A stretch of 64,000 bases of DNA from Candidatus Saccharimonadia bacterium (GTDB taxonomy: Bacteria > Patescibacteriota > Saccharimonadia > UBA4664), in NCBI GenBank assembly GCA_035544015.1, contig DATKIP010000076.1, positions 128,299 through 192,298 of the forward strand, read 5' to 3'. The position numbers and the translations under genes were made by a program. This document shows, piece after piece, positions 3,001 to 54,712 of the stretch. Under the pieces are notes generated by a model that made no database searches, was not told where the DNA came from, and saw only the letters and a program-made list of their open reading frames with translations. How positions within the stretch are numbered: the first letter of the stretch is position 1; every line of letters starts with the position of its first letter.

Positions 3001-4526
3001 GCACCATGACCATGGCCGTTTCTCGCGACAATCTTGGAAGGGTCAATAATTACGATTACACTGTCGTGGACCCCGCCACATTCACAGTTAAGCACGTTAT
3101 CGACAACATCGCATTCAGCCAGTCGAGCCAAGCCGTCTCGGGCACCGAAGCGGGGGCCGCAAAGACCTATACCTACGACAAAGCCGACCGGCTCACCACC
3201 GCCACGCTTGGCACCCACAGCTTTAGCTACAGCTTCGGGGCTCCGACAGCCTGCACGGGAACCTATAACGCCAACGCCGGCAAGAACGCCAATCGCACGA
3301 GCCAGGTACAAGATGGCGTCACCACCACCTATTGTTACGACAATGCCGACCGCTTAATTTCCAACACAGCAAATGGTGGCGCCAGTGTATCCGCCCACAC
3401 CTATGACGCACACGGGAACTTCGCGACACATGGGATCGATGGCTCTAGCGGCGGCGGCAATACAAAGATTGAATACGACTCGTCGGACCGCGCCGTCTAC
3501 ACATCCGATCCGGGCACAAACACTACCAATATCCGGGATGCACAGGATCGCCTGCTTACGATGGATGATTTCTGGCACAGTGATTACGGCTACTCTGATC
3601 CGGGCGATACACCTGATTTTACCCGCGGAACAGCCGGCTACGTACAAGAGGCATACATCCGGCTTATCGGCGGCGTGCTCTTAACTAATCGCTTGGGCGG
3701 AAGCGGGCAGCTCGACGGCCAAAATGTTTCGATGCCTAATCTGCATGGTGATGTTTTCGCTATAGCCAACGGCACCGGATTGCTCAGACAGGGGAAGTAC
3801 CCCAACTATGGCATTTTCCAATACACACCATTCGGAAGGGACCTCACGGGCGTTGATGGCTCCGAAGCCCCCGACAATGCTATGGGAACAAATAAATTCA
3901 CCACGGTGGGTGGGTTTGGTAAGTTAACCGAGACGGGCAACACATCACAGTTTGTCTTCATGGGCGCCCGCCTCTACGACGCTTCCCTCGGTCGCTTTGC
4001 TCAGGTCGATCCGATAGACGGCGGAACCGAAAACAATTACGTCTATCCGCCGGACCCAGTCAACAACTTCGACCTGAGCGGTACAAACGCATGGGATACA
4101 GCAGGCACAGTTGTAGGAGTTGGCGCGCTCGCGGTCTGCGTCGTAGCAAGCGCAGGAGCCTGCGGAGTCGCGCTGGGCGCCGCTACGGTAGCGGGTGCAG
4201 CGATCGCAGGCATGGCTACCTGGCAAGACACCCATAATTTCTGGCTTTCTGCAGGCATAGGGGTAGCATCCGGCGTTGCTGACCGGCTAAGTGGAGGCCT
4301 CTGGAAAACAAGCTCAGTCTTTAGGGCCGGCGTATTAAGGCTCGGGGCGAAATATCAAAGCAAGGTAGTAACAAACATGAGAGCCGCTAAACTCGGTGCG
4401 AGCTACATTGGCGGGTTGATCGTAAACAAAGCTGCAACCTCGACAATAAGAGGCGTCTATGACGACTGGTGGCTATGGAGCAGGAGTAGGCGGCCCGATT
4501 ACGTTGGGCTTACAATGATAGCATGA
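1..4526 (+). CDS. Rhs/YD-repeat polymorphic toxin, 5'-truncated at window edge; two PA14 domains, YD repeats, RHS core ending RxYDxxxGRFxxxDP...PVNNFDLSG, then ~147-aa Gly/Ala-rich hydrophobic C-terminal tip
   Basis: Frame is open back to nt 3, so the gene starts upstream of the window. PA14 signatures: GYMVRWTG...DDGVRV and GYVHFTAAGNYTFRIQSDDGVRLWLDD. YD-repeat motifs: YTYDKADRL, YCYDNADRL, YTYDAHGN. RHS core motif: RLYDASLGRFAQVDPIDGG. TGA stop at 4524-4526. Confidence 0.85.
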   Translation, partial: YLDTAGHSFPTQDDPQKLFLARTDTSLTQNWGTGSPVPNGPTTGYMVRWTGSYTPTLTGAYNFKATVSDGVRVTVGSTVVLDAWSDHEPAATVGPTVPVNLTGGTSVPITIDYYQNSGTSQISLLVNKPDSTGAYVPVETTSLSPQAQVLPEGWALGIDADGNLKYDYAVIGLNSVTLRDSTGQTHEYKFINNGFTPPTGEIGHMVRNGDSTVTFQDADGRTYVFNPNGTLASTTTPTDDLHPTALKYTYAGSPARLTQITDGVTSNRWAKIYYAGDTTNCPSLTAGYTAYTDARVVGMICAIATSDGTQSTPVNVLNGNVTRLSYQITTHPDSTTAPNLARIEKPGTDYTDYGYDSLGRVLSVRDRLASDAVYATPQVRLPDGTELTTIQYDALGRVSNATLPAATAGAVRIAHTYNYYTGQTQMHLTGATEPNGFSRKILYDATLRTTNDYDVANLNTQSEWHGSKDLVLSTTTPAGLKSTTLYDYADRPIDQYGPAPSAWFGSDRKPLPGNEPVSGQPYVNLIAHKQTGYDESTVAGNSALKSLAATYYNVDTYTNGTGQPAKALFGTPKLHTTGIGGANGDINKTWAGTPPFTPDAAPGGGTYGWGTRLSGYVHFTAAGNYTFRIQSDDGVRLWLDDTLIIDDWTDGSSRSHGMVAGYTGFNNTADSYHRIRLDYYNKAVGGVLNTDAALTLYMTPPAGGETSALGTLLNPGYGLATTNTVYDSNANVGNRTTTTGYGPNPELGLAQTSIVDPTGLALTTNYTYEAQGAAGSFLRQLTKTLPGGNTTNYAHYAATDPPRDNPCTVPVESYNQAGLQKLITQPDPDGAGPQTPVTTETIYDNTGHVVASRYNTEAWKCTTYDARGRVTQVATPSQPNTPHVTRSARTVTNNWSVGGNPLVTSVADSTGTITTTVDLLGRITSYTDAKSNTTTYGYDIFGRLTSKTTPYGTENYVYDNNNRLTAQKLGTTTLATPSYDAFGRLTGVTYPTVVSSFPVSTMTMAVSRDNLGRVNNYDYTVVDPATFTVKHVIDNIAFSQSSQAVSGTEAGAAKTYTYDKADRLTTATLGTHSFSYSFGAPTACTGTYNANAGKNANRTSQVQDGVTTTYCYDNADRLISNTANGGASVSAHTYDAHGNFATHGIDGSSGGGNTKIEYDSSDRAVYTSDPGTNTTNIRDAQDRLLTMDDFWHSDYGYSDPGDTPDFTRGTAGYVQEAYIRLIGGVLLTNRLGGSGQLDGQNVSMPNLHGDVFAIANGTGLLRQGKYPNYGIFQYTPFGRDLTGVDGSEAPDNAMGTNKFTTVGGFGKLTETGNTSQFVFMGARLYDASLGRFAQVDPIDGGTENNYVYPPDPVNNFDLSGTNAWDTAGTVVGVGALAVCVVASAGACGVALGAATVAGAAIAGMATWQDTHNFWLSAGIGVASGVADRLSGGLWKTSSVFRAGVLRLGAKYQSKVVTNMRAAKLGASYIGGLIVNKAATSTIRGVYDDWWLWSRSRRPDYVGLTMIA

Positions 4527-4792
4527 GCAAAAGAACGACATGCTACTGCGGAAAACCATACGCCCCTCTGGACGGCAGATTCTTCAAACTAGGAGGTCTT
4601 GTGATAATCGCTGCAATCGCACAATGGATAATCACCGGTCCGGACATAGCCCATTACAGGGCCTTCGGTGGATTCCTTGCGGTCCTCGTAATAATGCTGG
4701 GATTTCTCGTCGTGGCAACTGTGGTAAGGCTGCGTCAGGGGCATACCATTTTCTGTGCGATATGGGATGGAATTCGGTCAACGGTTCTGTAG
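4523..4792 (+). CDS. small 2-TM membrane protein, putative immunity protein for the Rhs C-terminal toxin
   Basis: ATGA overlap with the Rhs stop suggests translational coupling. Hydrophobic segments GGLVIIAAIAQWII and FLAVLVIMLGFLVVATVV. Immediately 3' of the toxin tip. Confidence 0.5.
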   Translation: MSKRTTCYCGKPYAPLDGRFFKLGGLVIIAAIAQWIITGPDIAHYRAFGGFLAVLVIMLGFLVVATVVRLRQGHTIFCAIWDGIRSTVL

Positions 4793-5787: not shown

Positions 5788-5822
5788 CAATAGAAAACGG
5801 GCTGAAGCCCGTTTTCTATTGT
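5788..5822. terminator. perfect 15-bp stem hairpin (caatagaaaacgggc-tgaa-gcccgttttctattg) between convergent genes
   Basis: Perfect inverted repeat seen directly in sequence. No strong U-tract on either side, so function as a terminator is inferred. Confidence 0.4.
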
Positions 5823-22247: not shown

Positions 22248-22304
22248 CATAATGAAATAACGCAGCGTCCCGCTGCTTGTACATTCGTCAGATTGGAGAC
22301 GGCC

Positions 22305-22715
22305 ATGCCGTATAGTCTCGTACCCGAGTTGGTGCCCTCAGAGGCGCCGGTGCACGGCGCCTACGTCGGCGTGCTCAGGCCCAGTTCGGTGTGGGGCCAG
22401 CCCACGATCGAGGCATTGGAGTGGTTCCTGGGCCACGACTGCCACGCTGTGGTCGTCGACTTCGACGTCAACCCCAACAGCCTCAGGTACACCCTCCGGG
22501 GCGCGCAGGGGGAGCGATTGGCCCCCAGGGTTGTGCAGCTCCTGGCTAGCGGCGGCATCCGGTCGTCCACCATGGGCCGCTTTGAGGCCCTCCACCTGGC
22601 GGCCGTCGTGAATCTGGGGGTCCGGACTCTGCTCTGCGACCGCAAGCGCGAGGCCCCCGACGGCTTCCCGGTGCTGGTGAGCCCCATCGAGCCGATTACC
22701 GCCCGCCCCCGCTGA
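22305..22715 (+). CDS. hypothetical protein (first of four small genes each followed by a related hairpin)
   Basis: GGAG 7 nt upstream of the ATG at 22305. The ORF track shows a TTG start at 22293. Confidence 0.45.
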   Translation: MPYSLVPELVPSEAPVHGAYVGVLRPSSVWGQPTIEALEWFLGHDCHAVVVDFDVNPNSLRYTLRGAQGERLAPRVVQLLASGGIRSSTMGRFEALHLAAVVNLGVRTLLCDRKREAPDGFPVLVSPIEPITARPR

Positions 22716-22730
22716 CCCCTCCAACCAGAT

Positions 22731-22770
22731 CTGGCGAATGCCCCCGGCGCACATGTTGCGCCGGGGGCTA
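22731..22770 (+). terminator. GC hairpin cccccggcgca-catgt-tgcgccggggg followed by CTACGCTGTTTTG (REP-like family copy 1)
   Basis: Perfect 11-bp stem followed by a T-run. Confidence 0.5.
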
Positions 22771-22867
22771 CGCTGTTTTGCGGCTTGACAAAAGCCAAAA
22801 ATAGTACAATGCTGAGTCAGCAGCGGCCGTCTGGCCGCTCATTCCGCTAGATACCCGCTTGGAGGGG

Positions 22868-23368
22868 ATGCACATGTTTGCCAGCCCCAACGGCGAGCCC
22901 CGGTTCGCCTGCACGCTGGGAGAGACCGTTGCTCCATTTCTCCCCCGCACGCACCTCGACCAACCCCTACCCTCGTGCGGGCCAGATGACGACCCCGTGG
23001 TCATCACCGCCGCCTACGAGGTGATCGGCGAGCCCCTCACGCCGGCGCTCGCCAGCCGCGTCGCCGCCGTGCTCGAGGCCCACCCCGCCGCCTGCCTCGT
23101 CGCGGTGTCGGCCGAAGCATTCAGCTTCCAGTTGCCGGGCCCCGTGGGCGAGCCCCTGCCGGCGCCGGTCCCCGAGCTGTTGGGCTGGCCGGCCGGCACT
23201 GTGTTGGATTGGTCTCGCGCCGATTCGATGCTGGAATCGGTGAAAGCTGCCGTGGCGGCTGCGCTGCTCAACGACGACTTGCCCGACCACATCGTCAACC
23301 TCACCCTCCGCACGTACGCGGCACCCGGTAGCGACGCCGTCGCCGGCGTACAGAGGACGCGACGGTAG
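22868..23368 (+). CDS. hypothetical protein
   Basis: SD ggagggg upstream of the ATG at 22868. Pro/Ala-rich. ORF track start is 22859. Confidence 0.4.
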   Translation: MHMFASPNGEPRFACTLGETVAPFLPRTHLDQPLPSCGPDDDPVVITAAYEVIGEPLTPALASRVAAVLEAHPAACLVAVSAEAFSFQLPGPVGEPLPAPVPELLGWPAGTVLDWSRADSMLESVKAAVAAALLNDDLPDHIVNLTLRTYAAPGSDAVAGVQRTRR

Positions 23369-23430: not shown

Positions 23431-23461
23431 TGATCCCCGGCGCGCATCGTGCGCCGGGGAT
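23431..23461 (+). repeat. GC hairpin gatccccggcgcgca-tcg-tgcgccggggatc (REP-like family copy 2)
   Basis: Near-perfect inverted repeat. Sequence is related to copies 1 and 3. Confidence 0.45.
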
Positions 23462-23575
23462 CCGTCATGTTGGGGGCAGCGCTCTGGACCCATTGACCGC
23501 CGGCATATTAAATGCCATAATGGTCGTCCGCAGCAACCGCTGTGCATCTGTCGGATCACAGAAGTGAGGGGTTCG

Positions 23576-23992
23576 TTGACGCCACTCGTCGGCCTTCACC
23601 AGATGTGGGGCGGAGACACCGGCCCGCACGGTGGCAGGTTCACGTTTTTCCTCGCCGACTCCACCGGGCAACAGCCCGCTCAACCGGTCGAGGCGTACAA
23701 AATTCCTGATCCCACCGCCGCCGCGTTAGGAGGGTATCTCAACGCTCTGGCCGGAGTTACCGCCAATCTCGGCCAGCTCACGGTCGTATATTTCCTGCGT
23801 CCGGAAGAGTGGCCCCCCGACCGCCGCCTGAGGCCCGAAACCGTCCGCAAGAAAATGCGTGACGCCATCACCGGCGTCGCCATTCGGGCATTCAACCACA
23901 ACCGGCTCGTTGAGCCCGCCAGGATCGGCCCAATCTACACGGCCGTCACCCCGCCGCCGTCCCCACCGCTCCCGCCCCCCGACCAAACCTGA
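23576..23992 (+). CDS. hypothetical protein (start uncertain: GTG 23564 or TTG 23576)
   Basis: ORF with GAGGGG upstream. C-terminal Pro-rich tail. Confidence 0.35.
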   Translation: MTPLVGLHQMWGGDTGPHGGRFTFFLADSTGQQPAQPVEAYKIPDPTAAALGGYLNALAGVTANLGQLTVVYFLRPEEWPPDRRLRPETVRKKMRDAITGVAIRAFNHNRLVEPARIGPIYTAVTPPPSPPLPPPDQT

Positions 23993-24001
23993 TCCGACCC
24001 G

Positions 24002-24028
24002 CCCCCGGCGCGCACGTTGCGCCGGGGG
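24002..24028 (+). repeat. GC hairpin cccccggcgcgca-cg-ttgcgccggggg (REP-like family copy 3)
   Basis: Follows the 23992 stop by 10 nt. Shares an ATCnrGCGA..CCCCGGCGC leader with copies 1 and 2. Confidence 0.45.
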
Positions 24029-42013: not shown

Positions 42014-43183
42014 GTGAATCTGCTCGACTTCTTCATTATCTTCGTGGCTCTGGCCGCGGCCGCCCGCGGGGTAGCCTCGGGCTTCCTGCGTCAAGTCGGT
42101 TCGCTGGGAGGATTTGTGCTAGGCCTGCTGCTAGGTGCGTGGCTGACGCCGATAATGACGCAGGCGCTCCCGGCCAGCGCTGCACGGCCGGTCTTGGCGC
42201 TCATCTTTTTCTTTGCGGTGGCCTTTACGCTCAGCGGCGTGGGCGAGATCATCGGCGTGCACCTCGCCGGCCTCATGAAGCGCGTCGGCCTCGATGCCGT
42301 CGACGGCGTCCTTGGCGCCGTTCTTGGCTTTGGAGGAGCATTACTGGCCCTATGGCTGTTGGCCAGCACCTTTGCCGGTTCAGTCGGCCCAGTGCTAGCG
42401 GCCGACATCGGCAACTCCAGCATCCTGCGATTGCTCGATCGCCACCTGCCGCCCGCCCCCGAGGTCACCGCCCGCCTCGAGCACGCCATCGGTGCCTCGC
42501 GCTTCCCGCGGGTGTTTGCCGGCCTCGAGCCCACGCCGGCCCCGCCGGTCACCGGGCCAAACGCCGCCGTCGTGAACGCCGCCGCCGCCGCCGCGCACGC
42601 CGCCACTGTCAAGATCGAGGGCTCTGGCTGCGGCGGCGTACTCGAGGGCTCCGGCTTCGTGGCCGCGCCGGGCCTCGTGGCCACCAACGCGCACGTCGTC
42701 GCTGGCATTGCTCGCCCCGTGGTCACCGACGCGGCCGGACCACACGTGGCGACCGTGGTGCTGTTTGACCCCGATCTCGATTTCGCCGTGCTGCGCACCT
42801 CCGGCCTGGTCGCCGCCCCGCTGGCCATCGAGCCTACCAGCCAGCCCCGCGGCACCGTCGCTGCTGCTCTCGGCTATCCCGGCGGCGGAGGCTTTACCGC
42901 CGGCGCCGCCGCCATTCTGGGCCAGCAACCCGCCGTTGGCCGCAATATCTACGACGCCGGCCTCATCCGCCGCGACATTTACACGCTTCAGGCCATAGTG
43001 CGCCCTGGCAACTCCGGCGGTCCGCTCGTTGCCGAAGACGGCACCGTCATTGGCGTAATCTTCGCTACCTCCACCACCAATTCAAACGTCGGCTATGCCC
43101 TCACCTCCCCCGAAATCCTGCCCGATCTCGCCCGCGCCGCCCACTCCGGCGCCGTTTCCACCGGCGCTTGCGTAGCCGATTAG
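42014..43183 (+). CDS. CvpA-family membrane domain fused to trypsin-like serine protease (MarP/Rv3671c-like)
   Basis: Four N-terminal TM helices. S1 protease motifs TNAHVV, D..DFAVL and GNSGGPL. Confidence 0.75.
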   Translation: MNLLDFFIIFVALAAAARGVASGFLRQVGSLGGFVLGLLLGAWLTPIMTQALPASAARPVLALIFFFAVAFTLSGVGEIIGVHLAGLMKRVGLDAVDGVLGAVLGFGGALLALWLLASTFAGSVGPVLAADIGNSSILRLLDRHLPPAPEVTARLEHAIGASRFPRVFAGLEPTPAPPVTGPNAAVVNAAAAAAHAATVKIEGSGCGGVLEGSGFVAAPGLVATNAHVVAGIARPVVTDAAGPHVATVVLFDPDLDFAVLRTSGLVAAPLAIEPTSQPRGTVAAALGYPGGGGFTAGAAAILGQQPAVGRNIYDAGLIRRDIYTLQAIVRPGNSGGPLVAEDGTVIGVIFATSTTNSNVGYALTSPEILPDLARAAHSGAVSTGACVAD

Positions 43184-43248
43184 GGCATAGGGTATACTGG
43201 GCGGCGGGAGCAACTCGGCTTCCCGCAGCAGCTCCAGGAGGGTGTCCG

Positions 43249-43842
43249 ATGAGTCGGGCAGTTACCGCAACGCTGGCCTCAGCCGTGGTGGCTGGCCTAG
43301 CAATCAGTGCAGCCGTCGTTTGGCGGATGGGCGAAGACCACCTGCCTGATTCCGTTCTCCATCCCGACGTCCCCACCTCGTCCGCTTCCCCCAACCAGCC
43401 GCCGGTGACTCGCCCCACGCCGCATCCCGCGGCCACCGGACCCACGGAAGGACCGGCTTCCCCTGATCTTTCCCCCTCGTGGGCCCTGGTGGGGGTTACG
43501 GTCGAGCCGCACGCCGGATTCGACCGGATCGCCTTCGCCTTCACCGACGGCACTCCGGCCTATGAGGTGAAGTATGTGAGTTCCGAGGGCCTTGACTCCA
43601 GTACCTTCCTGCTCGTCACCTTCAACCCCGACGTCACGCAGGAACGCCCCGATCGACGCGATGCCGCAGGGGCGCCCGTAGGCCGTACCGACGTGGGCCT
43701 TCCCTTCCTGAAGGCCTACTTCACCGGCGCCGACGGCGTCGGCCGGGTCATATATGTACTCGGTCTGAACGGCCCGGTACCCGTGCCTTTTCGGATGGTG
43801 GCGGGCAAGAACCTACTCTACCTCAATATAGGGGGCGCATAA
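43249..43842 (+). CDS. membrane-anchored/secreted hypothetical protein
   Basis: AGGAGGG SD 8 nt upstream of the ATG at 43249. TM helix ATLASAVVAGLAISAAVVW. The ORF track extends it to 43168. Confidence 0.5.
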   Translation: MSRAVTATLASAVVAGLAISAAVVWRMGEDHLPDSVLHPDVPTSSASPNQPPVTRPTPHPAATGPTEGPASPDLSPSWALVGVTVEPHAGFDRIAFAFTDGTPAYEVKYVSSEGLDSSTFLLVTFNPDVTQERPDRRDAAGAPVGRTDVGLPFLKAYFTGADGVGRVIYVLGLNGPVPVPFRMVAGKNLLYLNIGGA

Positions 43843-43844
43843 CC

Positions 43845-44585
43845 ATGAGGATGCAGCGGATAACACTCGCCTTCGAGGTGCCCGCCGCCGCCGGCCCCGT
43901 ACTCGTCGCCCGCGCCCGTCTCCTGGCCAACCGCCTGGAAGGCAGCATTCCCGAAGCGGCAAATGCGGTCACGTTCTCCCGCGAGCTCCGGGAACTCGGG
44001 CTCGAACTCGAGCTCAATGTCCTGCTCGTCGCGGCTGGTATCGAAACCATCGATCAGCTCTGCGGCCACACCGAAGAGAGCCTCCGGGCCACCGACCTGC
44101 GGCATGCCGAGCTCCGAGAAGTCATGCGCAAACTCGCAGCCCAGGACAAAGTCCTGGCTGGCTGCCAGGTTGCACCCGACGATCTCATCGAGCTCCTCGA
44201 TCTGAGCGAGCTCTTCTACTGCGGGCTCAAGAAGAGTGGGTACCACGCGCTCAGCCAGCTGACGGTTTTCGAACCGGTCGCGATGATAGCCACCATCGGG
44301 TCGATGGCGGTCTATGTGATCGCCGCGCTCAAGCAGCTCAATCGGCCGTCCACACCGCTCAACCTCGACCGCCCGCTCACCGACCTGCGGCCACCGAGCC
44401 CCACTACGTGGGACGTGCTGACCGCCGCCGGGATCGACATCGCCGGTCGCATCGGCAACCTCACCGCCACCGGTCTCCTGGCCGCGCTGCAAACGCATCC
44501 GGACCTGGACGACACCGCCGCCAGGGAGGGGGTCGACGCCCTCCGCCAGACCCTCGACCTCTACGGCTACCACCTCCCCAACTAA
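43845..44585 (+). CDS. protein of three RpoA alpha-CTD-like helix-hairpin-helix repeats (copy 1, intact)
   Basis: LIELLDLSELFYCGLKKSGYHALSQL resembles the alpha-CTD ELLxLSVRSxNCLKRAGIxTVGxL pattern, and two further similar units are present. GGGGG SD upstream. Confidence 0.55.
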   Translation: MRMQRITLAFEVPAAAGPVLVARARLLANRLEGSIPEAANAVTFSRELRELGLELELNVLLVAAGIETIDQLCGHTEESLRATDLRHAELREVMRKLAAQDKVLAGCQVAPDDLIELLDLSELFYCGLKKSGYHALSQLTVFEPVAMIATIGSMAVYVIAALKQLNRPSTPLNLDRPLTDLRPPSPTTWDVLTAAGIDIAGRIGNLTATGLLAALQTHPDLDDTAAREGVDALRQTLDLYGYHLPN

Positions 44586-44601
44586 CGAAAGGGGAATACC
44601 C

Positions 44602-44647
44602 GGGCGGGGCGGCCACAATGGCTGCCCCGCCCCAGAGCGTTTTTATT
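44602..44647 (+). terminator. rho-independent terminator (gggcggggcggcc-acaat-ggctgccccgcccc + GCGTTTTTATTG)
   Basis: GC stem followed by a T-run, 17 nt after the copy-1 stop. Confidence 0.5.
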
Positions 44648-44719
44648 GCAAATTACAAGAATTTATTTTATAATATAGCAGGCGTATTACCCGTCCCCGA
44701 CCGAGAGAAGGGCGTACCC

Positions 44720-45457
44720 ATGAAGATGACCCGCTTCACGTCCACCATCGAGGTACCGACCGCCAACAGGCCGGCCTTCGCGGCGGCCTTGAGCGATCTG
44801 CTGAGCCGCTTCGACGGCAAAACCACAAGGAGTGCCCAGTTCGATTTCTCCCCGGAGTTCGTCGAACTCGAGCTCGGCACCCAGACCAACATCGCCCTGG
44901 TCGCCAACAACATCGAAACCGTCGACTAGCTCCGTGCCTACACCGAGGCCAAACTGGTCGCGCTGTCCGGCATCGGTTACCCCATGCTCAAAGAAATCGT
45001 CGTCGCGCTGGCCAAGTGCAGCCACACCCTGGCGGGCTGCACGATCGCCATCGACGACCAGATCGAGCTGCTCGAGCTGCAAGATGTCGCCTACCGAATT
45101 CTCAAGAAGAAAGGTTTCAACGCCATCTCGCAGCTGGTGGCTCTCGATGCGGTCGATCTCGAACTCGCTCTGGGTCGGCTGGTCACCGGGGTCACACGGG
45201 CGCTCGTCCAGATCAACCGCCCTCCGGCTCCGCTCAACCCCGACCGGCCGCTCGGCGCGGTCGTCGAGGGCGAGCATCTGGCGAGGCTACTCACCGAGGC
45301 AGGAGTCGACATCACGGCTGCCGTGGGGACCTTCACGGCGAGCGGCCTCCAGGCCGCACTGAGCGAGCACCCCCGCGTGTCCGACCCCTCCGCCCACGAA
45401 TGGGTGAGCCACATCCGGCTGCTCCTCGACCGGTGCGGCTACCAACTCCCGGACTAA
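44720..45457 (+). pseudogene. tandem paralog (copy 2) of the alpha-CTD-like HhH protein, interrupted by an in-frame TAG at 44927-44929 where copy 1 has CAG
   Basis: Collinear protein similarity to copy 1 across both halves, in the same reading frame. A single C-to-T change gives Q to stop. Downstream re-initiation is possible at ATG 44984. Confidence 0.55.
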
Positions 45458-45471
45458 CCAGGTAATACCCG

Positions 45472-45519
45472 CGGGGCGGGGCGGCCACAATGGCTGCCCC
45501 GCCCCGAAGCGTTTCTGCT
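45472..45519 (+). terminator. duplicated copy of the terminator hairpin after paralog copy 2 (weaker T-tract)
   Basis: cgcggggcggggcggccacaatggctgccccgcccc followed by gaagcgtttctgct. Confidence 0.35.
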
Positions 45520-45533
45520 AAAATATACCCACC

Positions 45534-46364
45534 ATGGATTTATCACGCGTCGAAGACGTCCGTACCGCCCTGCGCCTCGCGGGCATCAGACCCAACAAAG
45601 GTCTCGGCCAACATTTCCTGGTCGACCGCAGCAGCCTCGAGGCCATCGTGGACGCGGCGGCCGTCACGCGGTCCGACACCGTGCTCGAGATCGGGCCGGG
45701 GCTGGGCGTGATGACCCGCCCCCTCGCCGCCCAAGCCGGCCGCCTCATCGCCGTCGAGACCGACCATGTGCTGGCTGGCCTGCTGCGCCGCGACGCCCCC
45801 GAAAACCTCGAGGTGGTCGAGCAAGATTTTCTCACCTACAACCTCCGCACCCTGTCGCCACGCTACAAAGTGATTGCCAACATTCCCTACTACCTCACGT
45901 CCAAAATCTTCCGGCTGCTCATCGAAAGCCCCAACCCCCCGGCGCTCATGTCGGTCCTCATTCAAAAAGAAGTCGCCGAGCGCATCACGGCCCGCCCCGG
46001 TCAGCTCTCCATCCTGGCGTTATCAGTCCAGTATTACGGCCACGCCGAAATCGTGCGGATCGTTGAGCGGCACAAATTTTGGCCCGCGCCGGCCGTCGAC
46101 TCGGCCGTGTTGCGTGTCACCCTCACCGGCCCCGCCTTCCCCGCCGACCCCGCCAAATTATTTCGCCTCATCAAGGCCGGCTTTGGTGAAAAGCGCAAAT
46201 TGCTCAAAAACGCCCTCTCCGGCGGCCTCAACCTTTCATCCGACCTCGCTGTCGAACTCATCGCCCACGCCAAATTACCCCCTACCGCGCGCGCCCAGGA
46301 GCTCGACCTGCCGGCCTGGCGGCGCCTCTACAACGTAACCGAAACAAGGAGTCTGCTCGGATGA
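45534..46364 (+). CDS. rsmA: 16S rRNA (adenine1518/1519-N6)-dimethyltransferase
   Basis: LGQHFL, VLEIGPG.G and NIPY motifs. Confidence 0.85.
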   Translation: MDLSRVEDVRTALRLAGIRPNKGLGQHFLVDRSSLEAIVDAAAVTRSDTVLEIGPGLGVMTRPLAAQAGRLIAVETDHVLAGLLRRDAPENLEVVEQDFLTYNLRTLSPRYKVIANIPYYLTSKIFRLLIESPNPPALMSVLIQKEVAERITARPGQLSILALSVQYYGHAEIVRIVERHKFWPAPAVDSAVLRVTLTGPAFPADPAKLFRLIKAGFGEKRKLLKNALSGGLNLSSDLAVELIAHAKLPPTARAQELDLPAWRRLYNVTETRSLLG

Positions 46365-51836: not shown

Positions 51837-51920
51837 AGTCGGCCTATAATTCCTAGGTTTTACGTTGCCCTAGGCATATGATGATCCTGCATGTATACAA
51901 GCCACCAGGAGGTGATCTAC

Positions 51921-52586
51921 ATGCGCAGAACCACCCTTGCGGCCGCCATATGCGCGGTCGCAGCGCTCCCTCTCGCCGGTTGTCAAGCCGGTAGTGGCGG
52001 TCCCACCGTCACTACCGCTAATCCCACCGTCCCGGCTCCCGCGACCACCGGCACCGTCCAGCCGCCGGTTGCCACCACGTCCCCGCGCAGCACGCCCGTG
52101 CCGCCCCGACCCTCCGCCGTCAAGCGCGTTTGCGGCGACACTAGCCGGTGGAATACCGCACCGCAAGGTGAGGACGTCCTGCCGGTCCGGGAAGCGCTAC
52201 TCGGCCCCACTCCCGGCAGCCACGACACCTGCGATCGCGTGCGGTTCGACGTCAAAACCGCCGCCAAGGTGGGGTGGGATGTCCGGTACGTGCCCGAGCT
52301 CACGGCCGATGGCAGCGGCAAGCACCTTGATGTGGCCGGCGGCGCCGTGCTCCAGGTGACCATCCAGGCGCCCCTGCTCAGCCAGGTCACCACCCACGAG
52401 CCCGGCGACGTCCTGGCTGATCGCGCTGAGTGGCCAGCCATGGTGCAGATCGTGTTCGCGGGCTCTCACGAGAGCGTGTCCAGCTTCGGCCTCGGGGTCC
52501 GCAAAGGCCAGCGCCCCTTCCGCGTCTGGACCAAAGTAGCGGACGGAGTGCGCAGCATCATCGTGGACATCGCCTACTCCGGGTAG
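51921..52586 (+). CDS. lipoprotein, hypothetical
   Basis: Perfect SD AGGAGGTGATC upstream. Lipobox LPLAGC. Architecture resembles the 43249 protein. Confidence 0.6.
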   Translation: MRRTTLAAAICAVAALPLAGCQAGSGGPTVTTANPTVPAPATTGTVQPPVATTSPRSTPVPPRPSAVKRVCGDTSRWNTAPQGEDVLPVREALLGPTPGSHDTCDRVRFDVKTAAKVGWDVRYVPELTADGSGKHLDVAGGAVLQVTIQAPLLSQVTTHEPGDVLADRAEWPAMVQIVFAGSHESVSSFGLGVRKGQRPFRVWTKVADGVRSIIVDIAYSG

Positions 52587-52695
52587 CCCGCCGCACCTCG
52601 CGGCATCATCCGCCCACCGATGGCGATGGAGAGTAGCCGGCTCTCCATCGCCATCCCGGCATCATTGCCGGGCCGTCGCCTGCTACAATAACACC

Positions 52696-53289: not shown

Positions 53290-54257
53290 TCAGCCTCCTC
53301 GTAGCGCTCGGTATCCTGGCGGCAGTTGGCTACGGCGCGTATCAGGGCACCCGTCGTGGGCTCATCATCATCGCGTTTGAGTTTGTGAGTTTTGCCCTGG
53401 CCACCCTCACGGCGATCGTGATCTACCACCCGCTGGGGACGGTCGTCAAAACCATTGCCGGCGTTAATATCGCGCTGGGCAACGTCGCCGCTTTTGTGAC
53501 CGTCTGGACCGTTTCGGAGGTGCTCTGCGCGCTGTTTGTGCACTTTGTGGTGCTCCGGCGCCTCCCTCCGCAAGTCCACTTTTCGAACCTCAACCGGGCC
53601 GGCGGAGGCCTCTTTGGCGCCTTCAAGACCGCCGCTATCATCACCCTCGCGCTCATCGTGTTTGACGGCCTGCCCATCGCCGCCTCCATCAAAAAACCCG
53701 TCATCACTGCGCCGGTGGCTGCCCAATTTATCGCGGCCAGCGGCGATTTGCAGCCCCGGCTTGCCGCGGGGCTCGGCCGCGACATCAACGACAGCTTCGA
53801 TTTTTTCACCATTACCGCCAGCCCCGAGAGCGAGGTCCATATCGATCTCGGCTTCACTACCACCAATTTTACCGTTGACTCCCATCTCGAGGCCGATATG
53901 CTGGGCCTCATTAACCACGAGCGCACCTTGCAAGGTCTGCCGTCGCTCACTCTCAACCTCAAGGCTCGCGCCGTCGCGCGCGCCTACTCCGCCGAAATGT
54001 TTACCCACGGCTATTTCTCGCACATCGACGCCGCCGGCAAATCACCGTTCGACCGCATGAAGACCGGCGGCGTTAGCTTTACCAGCGCCGGCGAAAACCT
54101 AGCCCTCGCCCCCACGCTCAGCCTCGCCCACGATGGCCTCATGAAATCGCCCGAGCACCGCGCCAACATCCTCTCGTCGGCGTATCGCACGGTGGGCATC
54201 GGTGTGGTTGACGGCGGGCCCTATGGGCTCATGATCACGCAGGACTTCACGGATTAG
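53286..54257 (+). CDS. CvpA-like membrane domain fused to CAP/SCP (YkwD-like) extracellular domain
   Basis: Four TM helices, then INHERTLQGLPSL...HGYFSH...GENLA...HRANIL, which is typical of the CAP domain. ATGA overlap with the upstream gene. Confidence 0.7.
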   Translation: MISLLVALGILAAVGYGAYQGTRRGLIIIAFEFVSFALATLTAIVIYHPLGTVVKTIAGVNIALGNVAAFVTVWTVSEVLCALFVHFVVLRRLPPQVHFSNLNRAGGGLFGAFKTAAIITLALIVFDGLPIAASIKKPVITAPVAAQFIAASGDLQPRLAAGLGRDINDSFDFFTITASPESEVHIDLGFTTTNFTVDSHLEADMLGLINHERTLQGLPSLTLNLKARAVARAYSAEMFTHGYFSHIDAAGKSPFDRMKTGGVSFTSAGENLALAPTLSLAHDGLMKSPEHRANILSSAYRTVGIGVVDGGPYGLMITQDFTD

Positions 54258-54712
54258 CTCGTTTCGGTGAGCCTTCAAACTTGCCGTATTTGAAATAGAT
54301 GTTAAAGTCGTATCACGTCTACTCCCTACCGGAAGGAACAGTCGTGAGCGTTTCTCCGTTATCCGACGGCCGGAGGCCCGGCGAAGTGCTGGAGGCCTGC
54401 GAAGACCCGAAGATGGACCTCATCTTCAACAGCCCGGCCTACCAGGATGGCATCGTCGACGGCCTGCATGAGGCAATCGCAACGGCCATCACTAGAGGAG
54501 GCGATCCCCTAGAGGACCCCCAGTGGGGCGGTCCCTCACCGTCTCGCCACAGTAGCGGAGTCTCCTACACCTACTAGGCCGCCGCACGGCACTATCCGGC
54601 GCCCGGGCATCAAGCTCGGGCGCCGGTCTCCTTTTAGGCGCCACACACCGCCATCCCCAGCCCAACCAAACTGATTGTCCAAATCTCCATATTTCGTTAA
54701 AATTGTCCAATT

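Follow-up and report, generated by a model that had tools for sequence, protein, structure and literature searches.

An in-frame TAG in one of two tandem genes for proteins with three alpha-CTD-like modules beside ksgA in a Candidatus Saccharimonadia genome

The question raised by this locus is what has become of a gene that is interrupted by a single in-frame TAG and otherwise looks intact. The window, i.e. the whole stretch of 64,000 nucleotides analysed here, is part of a 320-kb contig assembled with MEGAHIT (ENA ERZ27251635 k141_318506) and belongs to a metagenome-assembled Candidatus Saccharimonadia genome. Its plus strand carries two adjacent genes for proteins that resemble the C-terminal domain of the RNA polymerase alpha subunit (alpha-CTD). 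Copy 1 (coordinates 43845–44585; NCBI VMT30_04610, hypothetical protein) is an intact open reading frame (ORF) of 246 codons, and copy 2 (coordinates 44720–45457), of 245 codons, is collinear with it and interrupted only once, by a TAG at codon 70 (coordinates 44927–44929). The most probable explanation is that copy 2 is a recently nonsense-inactivated paralog that was redundant and dispensable.

The original prediction had described the two genes as tandem collinear paralogs, and this was borne out, as their products share 41% amino acid (aa) sequence identity end to end (E 6e-53) with three single-residue gaps. Its description of the stop was also found to be correct. The TAG lies inside the first of three modules, opposite Gln70 (CAG) of copy 1 (ATCGATCAG in copy 1 versus GTCGACTAG in copy 2), the frame continues past it, and the first ATG thereafter, 18 codons on, opens a 157-aa ORF (coordinates 44984–45457) that would start within the last helix of module 1 and still include modules 2 and 3. 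NCBI lists the 69-aa N-terminal fragment and this ORF as separate genes, VMT30_04615 and VMT30_04620. Positions 1–69 and 71–244 of the hidden Markov model (HMM) of the family match copy 2 before and after the TAG with no change of frame. The corresponding column is variable (Q, E, K, L, M and others) in an alignment of 30 family members (alignment A3), and no other family member has a stop there. The TAG at codon 70 of 245 is thus premature, facing sense codons in the intact copy 1 and in about 40 intact relatives.

The T at 44927 is given by two different assemblers. In addition to the MEGAHIT contig, the Logan assembly of run SRR8863102 includes a 900-nt contig that is 100% identical to coordinates 44604–45503 of the window, TAG included. 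Its ends fall inside the two identical hairpins that follow the genes, as expected where a repeat is longer than the assembler k-mer. A scan of the 64-kb window for stops flanked on each side by 60 stop-free codons of high GC content at third positions (GC3) returned three sites. Two are ordinary gene ends, and 44927 is the only stop that interrupts a coding-like frame with such flanks on both sides. As no other coding frame in the 64 kb is interrupted, the assembly is not generally error-prone.

Copy 2 carries no frameshift or further stop, its nonsynonymous divergence (dN) and GC3 are similar on the two sides of the TAG, and the most conserved residues of the family (L61, L72, E116 and Y125) are kept. 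Its upstream signals also appear undamaged. The AT-rich spacer behind copy 1 includes a promoter-like site on the plus strand (TTGCAA, 17 nt, TATAAT; coordinates 44646–44674) with 10 of 12 matches to the consensus, and a Shine-Dalgarno-like AAGGG motif precedes the ATG, so that copy 2 is probably still equipped for expression. In view of this lack of secondary decay, copy 2 would be a nascent pseudogene at most.

The proteins were examined for the predicted relationship to the alpha-CTD. When the TAG was read as Q, residues 49–98 of copy 2 matched the Pfam family RNA_pol_A_CTD (PF03118) with 30.5 bits, above the cut-off of 23.8, and a match to HHH_5 was just below its cut-off. Copy 1, for which the profile comparison had been proposed, scored only 18.0 bits (E 0.0023) and on its own fell below the cut-off. 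However, 13 of 30 family members match RNA_pol_A_CTD at E<=0.01, and a profile of the 30 members detected solved alpha-CTDs with E 1.9e-8 at positions 47–105 (module 1; 1doq) and E 8e-5 at positions 114–171 (module 2). An AlphaFold2 model of copy 1, made with the 30-member alignment, is all-helical (pLDDT 95, pTM 0.85). The 30 best Foldseek matches of this model in the PDB are all alpha-CTDs, with probabilities up to 1.0, target-normalised TM scores of 0.7–0.82 over 60–70 residues and root-mean-square deviations of 1.4–3.3 Å over about 60–65 residues. The Foldseek E-values are only 0.05–1, because one module aligns at a time, and the N-terminal helix-hairpin-helix domains of RAD51 paralogs rank next.

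Copy 1 consists of an N-terminal unit (residues ~1–43) and three alpha-CTD-like helix-hairpin-helix modules (residues ~44–106, 110–172 and 176–246). Comparison with hhalign related module 1 to module 2 with 95% probability (E 2.8e-8) and to module 3 with 75% probability (E 2.6e-5), and found the first 43 residues to be unrelated to the modules. The earlier view of the proteins as triple helix-hairpin-helix repeats of alpha-CTD type therefore holds. Codon 70, the position of the TAG, lies within module 1, for which the model has helices at residues 55–63 and 69–73.

The surface by which the alpha-CTD contacts DNA, known as the 265 determinant, is not kept. The residue numbers used here (R265, N268, C269, G296, K298, S299 and E261) are those of E. 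coli. In the column of the DNA-contacting arginine copy 1 has E, copy 2 has Q, and the family as a whole shows E, Q, S or G. K298 and S299 correspond to A and E in copy 1 and to P and M in copy 2, and none of the arginine, G296, K298 and S299 positions is conserved in the family. The isoelectric point (pI) varies from 4.7 to 10.6 between members, the two window copies being acidic (5.1 and 5.3). Given the absence of the determinant residues and the variable pI, canonical binding of the UP-element type is unlikely.

Relatives of the two proteins were sought in several databases. With a profile built from the two copies, a HMMER scan of 1.84 billion cluster representatives yielded 51 matches at E<=1e-3, about 40 of which are collinear proteins of 236–270 residues. 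Word-indexed searches of 5.8 billion proteins returned essentially only the entries of the query genome itself, and the 30-member alignment has no stretch that is conserved enough for a search for loci. In that alignment E116 is the only invariant residue, and L61, L72 and Y125 are nearly invariant. Every family member with an identified source is from Saccharimonadia. The family proteins, of ~245 residues, lack a hydrophobic signal-like N-terminus. No family in NCBIfam, PHROGs or PADLOC covers them. The RpoA N-terminal domain is absent, and the NCBIfam rpoA models match only over their C-terminal 60 positions and far below their cut-offs.

In eight of nine retrieved contexts, the family gene is located between a gene for a cvpA-protease protein (or a G5/SLT gene upstream) and ksgA, and in these eight the genes for methionyl-tRNA synthetase (MetRS) and TatD follow further downstream, as in the window. 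The window order begins with the cvpA-protease gene (coordinates 42014–43183, plus strand; Pfam Colicin_V 3.8e-15, Trypsin_2 4.6e-20), which is syntenic in relatives, encodes a trypsin-like protease and itself ends in TAG. It is followed by a gene for an AMIN-like protein with a membrane-anchored N-terminus (coordinates 43168–43842, plus strand; Pfam AMIN-like E 9.9e-5, below the cut-off), copies 1 and 2, and ksgA/rsmA for the 16S rRNA dimethyladenosine transferase (coordinates 45534–46364, plus strand; Pfam RrnaAD 1e-46). Only 2 nt separate the TAA of the AMIN-like gene from the start codon of copy 1, and these two genes therefore probably form one transcript. A second AMIN-like gene (~51890–52590) and a second cvpA-domain gene (~53290–54260; a CAP fusion with no protease) were noted ~8–10 kb downstream in the gene table of the locus. 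The second AMIN-like gene was not detected by tblastn with the product of the first at E<=1e-3, hence any paralogy is distant.

The interval between the protease gene and ksgA was compared in loci L003, L007–L009, L011–L016, L020–L022, L026, L028, L090 and L092. Its length varies between 30 nt, with no gene, and the 2.3 kb of the window (coordinates 43183–45534), which hold the AMIN-like gene and two family genes. Two intact tandem copies are present in L007 and L009, and one copy in L003–L006, L008, L011, L090 and L092. L016 carries a short form (coordinates 1271–1783) made of the N-terminal unit and modules 1 and 2 only (HMM positions 5–171), and an unrelated hairpin of its own stands between it and ksgA. 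L014 and L021 have nothing between the protease gene and ksgA, which abut. In L012, L020, L022 and L028 the slot was seen to hold 0.6–1.8 kb with no family gene. A survey around KsgA in 47 Saccharimonadia species representatives found a family gene within 4 kb only in L011, L016 and L021, the last a weak match downstream of ksgA. As copy number is 0, 1 or 2 among relatives, the gene is dispensable and the slot plastic. In the ninth context the family member, P0023, was encountered away from ksgA (L094, coordinates 4001–4750; metagenome-assembled genome JTS-RE368, the same genome as L022), among neighbours that look accessory (MPAB_Lcp_cat, a cupredoxin-like protein, a GNAT acetyltransferase and a LIP lipase), and a ksgA-centred survey therefore undercounts the family. 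A phage or defence origin was rejected, as PHROGs and PADLOC gave no match.

The two copies are far from identical. Their coding DNA is only ~58% identical, and by the NG86 method, which gave a protein identity of 42%, dN is 0.58 and the synonymous divergence (dS) 0.76, for a rough dN/dS of ~0.77. By these values the pair is not a fresh duplication. When the ~58% of the coding DNA is set against the 32/32 identity of the hairpins, the word duplication should not imply a recent event for the genes, and from the sequence comparison the pair is judged to be an old duplication, hairpin excepted. The KsgA proteins of the window and L007 are 75% identical (dN 0.17, dS 1.3, dN/dS ~0.13), whereas copy 2 and the L007 family gene beside ksgA are 36% identical in their products (dN 0.69, dS 1.4). 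The rate of evolution is far higher in the family than in the adjacent ksgA. Neighbour-joining grouped the window copies as sisters with 67% bootstrap support and the L009 pair likewise with 69%, and did not join the copies of L007. An ancient A/B pair of paralogs with positional orthology was considered and rejected, as neither the tree nor the pairwise identities support it, and lineage-specific duplication or concerted evolution within genomes appears to fit better.

Of the explanations offered earlier for the TAG, which were a nascent pseudogene, a sequencing error, a split gene and programmed readthrough, inactivation now comes clearly first. A consensus artefact or a minority allele, most cells having an intact copy 2 with CAG or another sense codon, would agree with a copy that looks fully functional but for one base, in a metagenome-assembled genome known from one sample with no other population found. 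It is nevertheless unlikely, as both assemblers give T, the Logan contig crosses the site unbroken and no other gene in the 64 kb is disrupted, and consensus substitution errors are rare at normal coverage. The chance that copy 2 is a functional split gene, in which both the 69-residue peptide and a protein of 157 residues initiated at ATG 44984 are made and used, is also small. In its favour, the frame stays open beyond the TAG, both pieces are annotated as genes by NCBI, and the short form in L016 indicates that the architecture tolerates the loss of a module. However, the break is inside module 1 and neither piece keeps that module whole, ATG 44984 is 54 nt past the stop and is not preceded by a GGAG-like motif of the kind that true family gene starts carry, and none of the 51 matches is a free-standing form of modules 2 and 3 that starts there.

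A full-length copy 2 made by programmed decoding of the TAG, whether through readthrough, suppression by a tRNA or codon reassignment, is highly improbable, despite the intact remainder of the gene and the alignment of the TAG with Gln (CAG), the usual identity of a reassigned or suppressed TAG. The base that follows the TAG is C, which in E. coli makes for a comparatively weak termination context. However, TAG ends eight of the 31 long high-GC3 ORFs on the plus strand of the window, and the genome therefore does not appear to be recoded. The only tRNA found in the 64-kb window is a tRNA-Glu and none has a CUA anticodon, no in-frame TAG recurs in another coding-like frame, and other family members have no stop in this column. 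Rfam has no match at E<=1 at the hairpins or the TAG (a tRNA being its only match in the whole window), and no notable structure was found at the TAG site. TAG is not known to be reassigned in Saccharimonadia. A further proposal, to which little credence is given, concerns the family as a whole. The proteins could be Saccharimonadia-specific alpha-CTD mimics in a genetic conflict, e.g. by intercepting, as decoys or adaptors, factors of phage or host that normally dock on the RNA polymerase alpha-CTD. This would account for a divergence 4–6 times the ksgA rate, the repeated tandem duplication, the patchy slot and the frequent loss, with the TAG of copy 2 as a snapshot, and gene conversion still at work between both units would then explain why the hairpins are identical.

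Several points weigh against inactivation of copy 2. Both assemblies probably derive from the same run, so the T may be a segregating variant or a systematic error, and a second population of the organism was not found in protein-based scans of genomes and metagenomes or in an exact-DNA scan around the TAG with N at the variable base. An undecayed copy 2 with its expression signals fits a functional, decoded or split gene equally well. The NG86 dS values are near saturation under a strong GC3 bias (~0.84), which makes dN/dS rough. In addition, the function proposed for the protein is a guess, the family pI spanning 4.7 to 10.6 and R265 being replaced by E, Q, S or G. Copy 2 resembles an ordinary nonsense pseudogene in having one premature stop opposite an intact neighbouring paralog and intact relatives, and in belonging to a gene that is dispensable in relatives, but it differs in that secondary decay is lacking and inactivation is deduced from one base in one metagenome sample.

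Recent inactivation remains the favoured explanation. We take as established the paralogy and the stop, the fold and the synteny, as well as the variation in copy number and the rapid divergence of the proteins, and presume that the TAG is not decoded. The variable slot between the cvpA-protease gene and ksgA holds in this genome an AMIN-like gene and two fast-evolving family paralogs, each predicted to encode a short N-terminal unit and three alpha-CTD-like modules packed as one compact body. Copy 2 would have acquired a single nonsense codon (TAG for CAG at position 70) with its signals and frame otherwise kept, translation should end with residue 69, midway through module 1, and the loss may represent birth-and-death turnover in a dispensable family.

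The two genes are each followed by the same 32-nt hairpin (GGGCGGGGCGGCCACAATGGCTGCCCCGCCCC), which starts 16–17 nt after the stop codon. Hairpin 1 (coordinates 44602–44633, plus strand) has a 14-bp GC stem with one G-U pair and is followed by AGAGCGTTTTT, and hairpin 2 (coordinates 45474–45505, plus strand) is identical (32/32) and followed by GAAGCGTTTCT. The sequence occurs exactly twice in the window, where zero occurrences are expected by chance. The stems are 14–16 bp, and the flanking RNA has folding z-scores of -3.6 and -4.7. Read from the opposite strand, the lone G-U pair would become a C-A mismatch, which identifies the plus-strand RNA as the relevant molecule. From their position and structure the hairpins are presumed to terminate transcription, hairpin 1 that of copy 1. 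A consensus terminator scanner called neither, because the T-runs (TTTTT and TTT) begin ~6 nt past the stem, after AGAGCG and GAAGCG, respectively.

A hairpin is found at the same place in L003, L007, L008, L009, L011 and L016, with a drifting sequence. Hairpin 2 is orthologous to those 3' of the family gene in L007 and L008, differing from the former at two positions and from the latter in its loop and by a compensatory A-T to G-C change at the closing pair. In L009, related GGG(C/T)GGGG-type hairpins follow both copies, and the hairpins in L003, L011 and L016 are unrelated. This variation appears to be terminator drift and not that of a specific recognition element. A role as a conserved partner element of the protein was rejected, as the sequence is common only to the closer relatives (L007, L008 and partly L009) and unrelated in L003, L011 and L016. 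A dispersed repeat was also rejected, there being only two copies in 64 kb.

The original prediction had the terminator duplicated together with the gene. The same hairpin does stand 3' of each gene, but it need not have travelled with it. In L007, which has two tandem copies, the hairpin is found only 3' of the second and none lies between them. In the window, the identity of 32/32 in the hairpins versus ~58% in the coding DNA, a synonymous divergence that falls toward the 3' end, and ~83% identity over the last 94 nt of the two units suggest that the 3' end was recently copied or gene-converted and is not a relic of the original duplication. GC hairpins of another type (core CCCCGGCGCGCA, loop, TGCGCCGGGG) were observed in three near-identical examples in a different part of the window (coordinates 22740–22768, 23432–23462 and 24002–24028), each just 3' of a small plus-strand ORF (coordinates 22293–22715, 22859–23368 and 23564–23992). 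The products of these three ORFs have no detectable similarity to one another, and local spread of a hairpin with no gene duplication therefore occurs in this genome. Two further long perfect hairpins with 15-bp stems are located at 5788–5821 and 52619–52655, the latter inside or at the end of an ORF region.

Upstream of ksgA, a conserved -10-like sequence (TAAAAT/TAAGAT) was seen only ~8–10 nt before the ATG, with no Shine-Dalgarno motif, in the window (coordinates 45515–45536) and in L007 (1765–1786), L008 (1268–1283), L009 (4905–4922) and L016 (1868–1884). This arrangement suggests that the ksgA mRNA may be leaderless or have a very short leader.

The family was compared with other proteins built of the same domain. 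Like the RNA polymerase alpha-CTD, the modules are compact and helical with two helix-hairpin-helix motifs and a detectable sequence similarity, and the invariant E116 (in a DDxIE motif in module 2) aligns with E261 in the DDLEL motif of the E. coli protein. The differences are the three modules in one chain with an N-terminal unit in place of the RpoA N-terminal domain, the unconserved R265 and G296/K298/S299 positions and the widely variable net charge. Unlike rpoA, the family is also sporadic and very fast-evolving. Free-standing alpha-CTD-like proteins had been called poorly described. However, phage genomes already have such proteins annotated, for example those of Rhodococcus phage Finch, Mycobacterium phage Mithril and uncultured Caudovirales, and these were the best matches in a viral structure library. 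They too are small, encoded outside RpoA and uncharacterised, and carry a module of this kind, but the match covers one module only (TMq ~0.24, E 0.07–4), and the window locus is flanked by housekeeping genes and not phage genes.

Tandem arrays of the same module type are also present in the multi-repeat proteins P0011, P0024, P0025, P0034 and P0041 (family profile E 5e-18 to 5e-5). These differ from the family in having four to more than 10 near-identical repeats in 320–900 aa and hydrophobic N-terminal segments, lack the N-terminal unit and are not collinear with it. The five proteins, of 413–900 aa, represent an apparently undescribed repeat architecture, and an additional protein, P0027, has 323 aa and no hydrophobic segment. 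For the family itself, a tentative best guess is that it may provide protein- or nucleic-acid-binding adaptors that act via alpha-CTD-type surfaces and not in the canonical minor-groove mode.

Taken alone, a single nonsense codon in a redundant copy of a dispensable gene, seen in one metagenome-assembled genome, matters little. For annotation, VMT30_04615 and VMT30_04620 should be treated as one disrupted gene. Beyond this, a compact, confidently foldable family of triple alpha-CTD-like proteins, covered by no Pfam or NCBIfam model, has been delimited. It marks a variable, fast-evolving slot beside ksgA that may interest students of transcription or of genome plasticity in reduced episymbionts.

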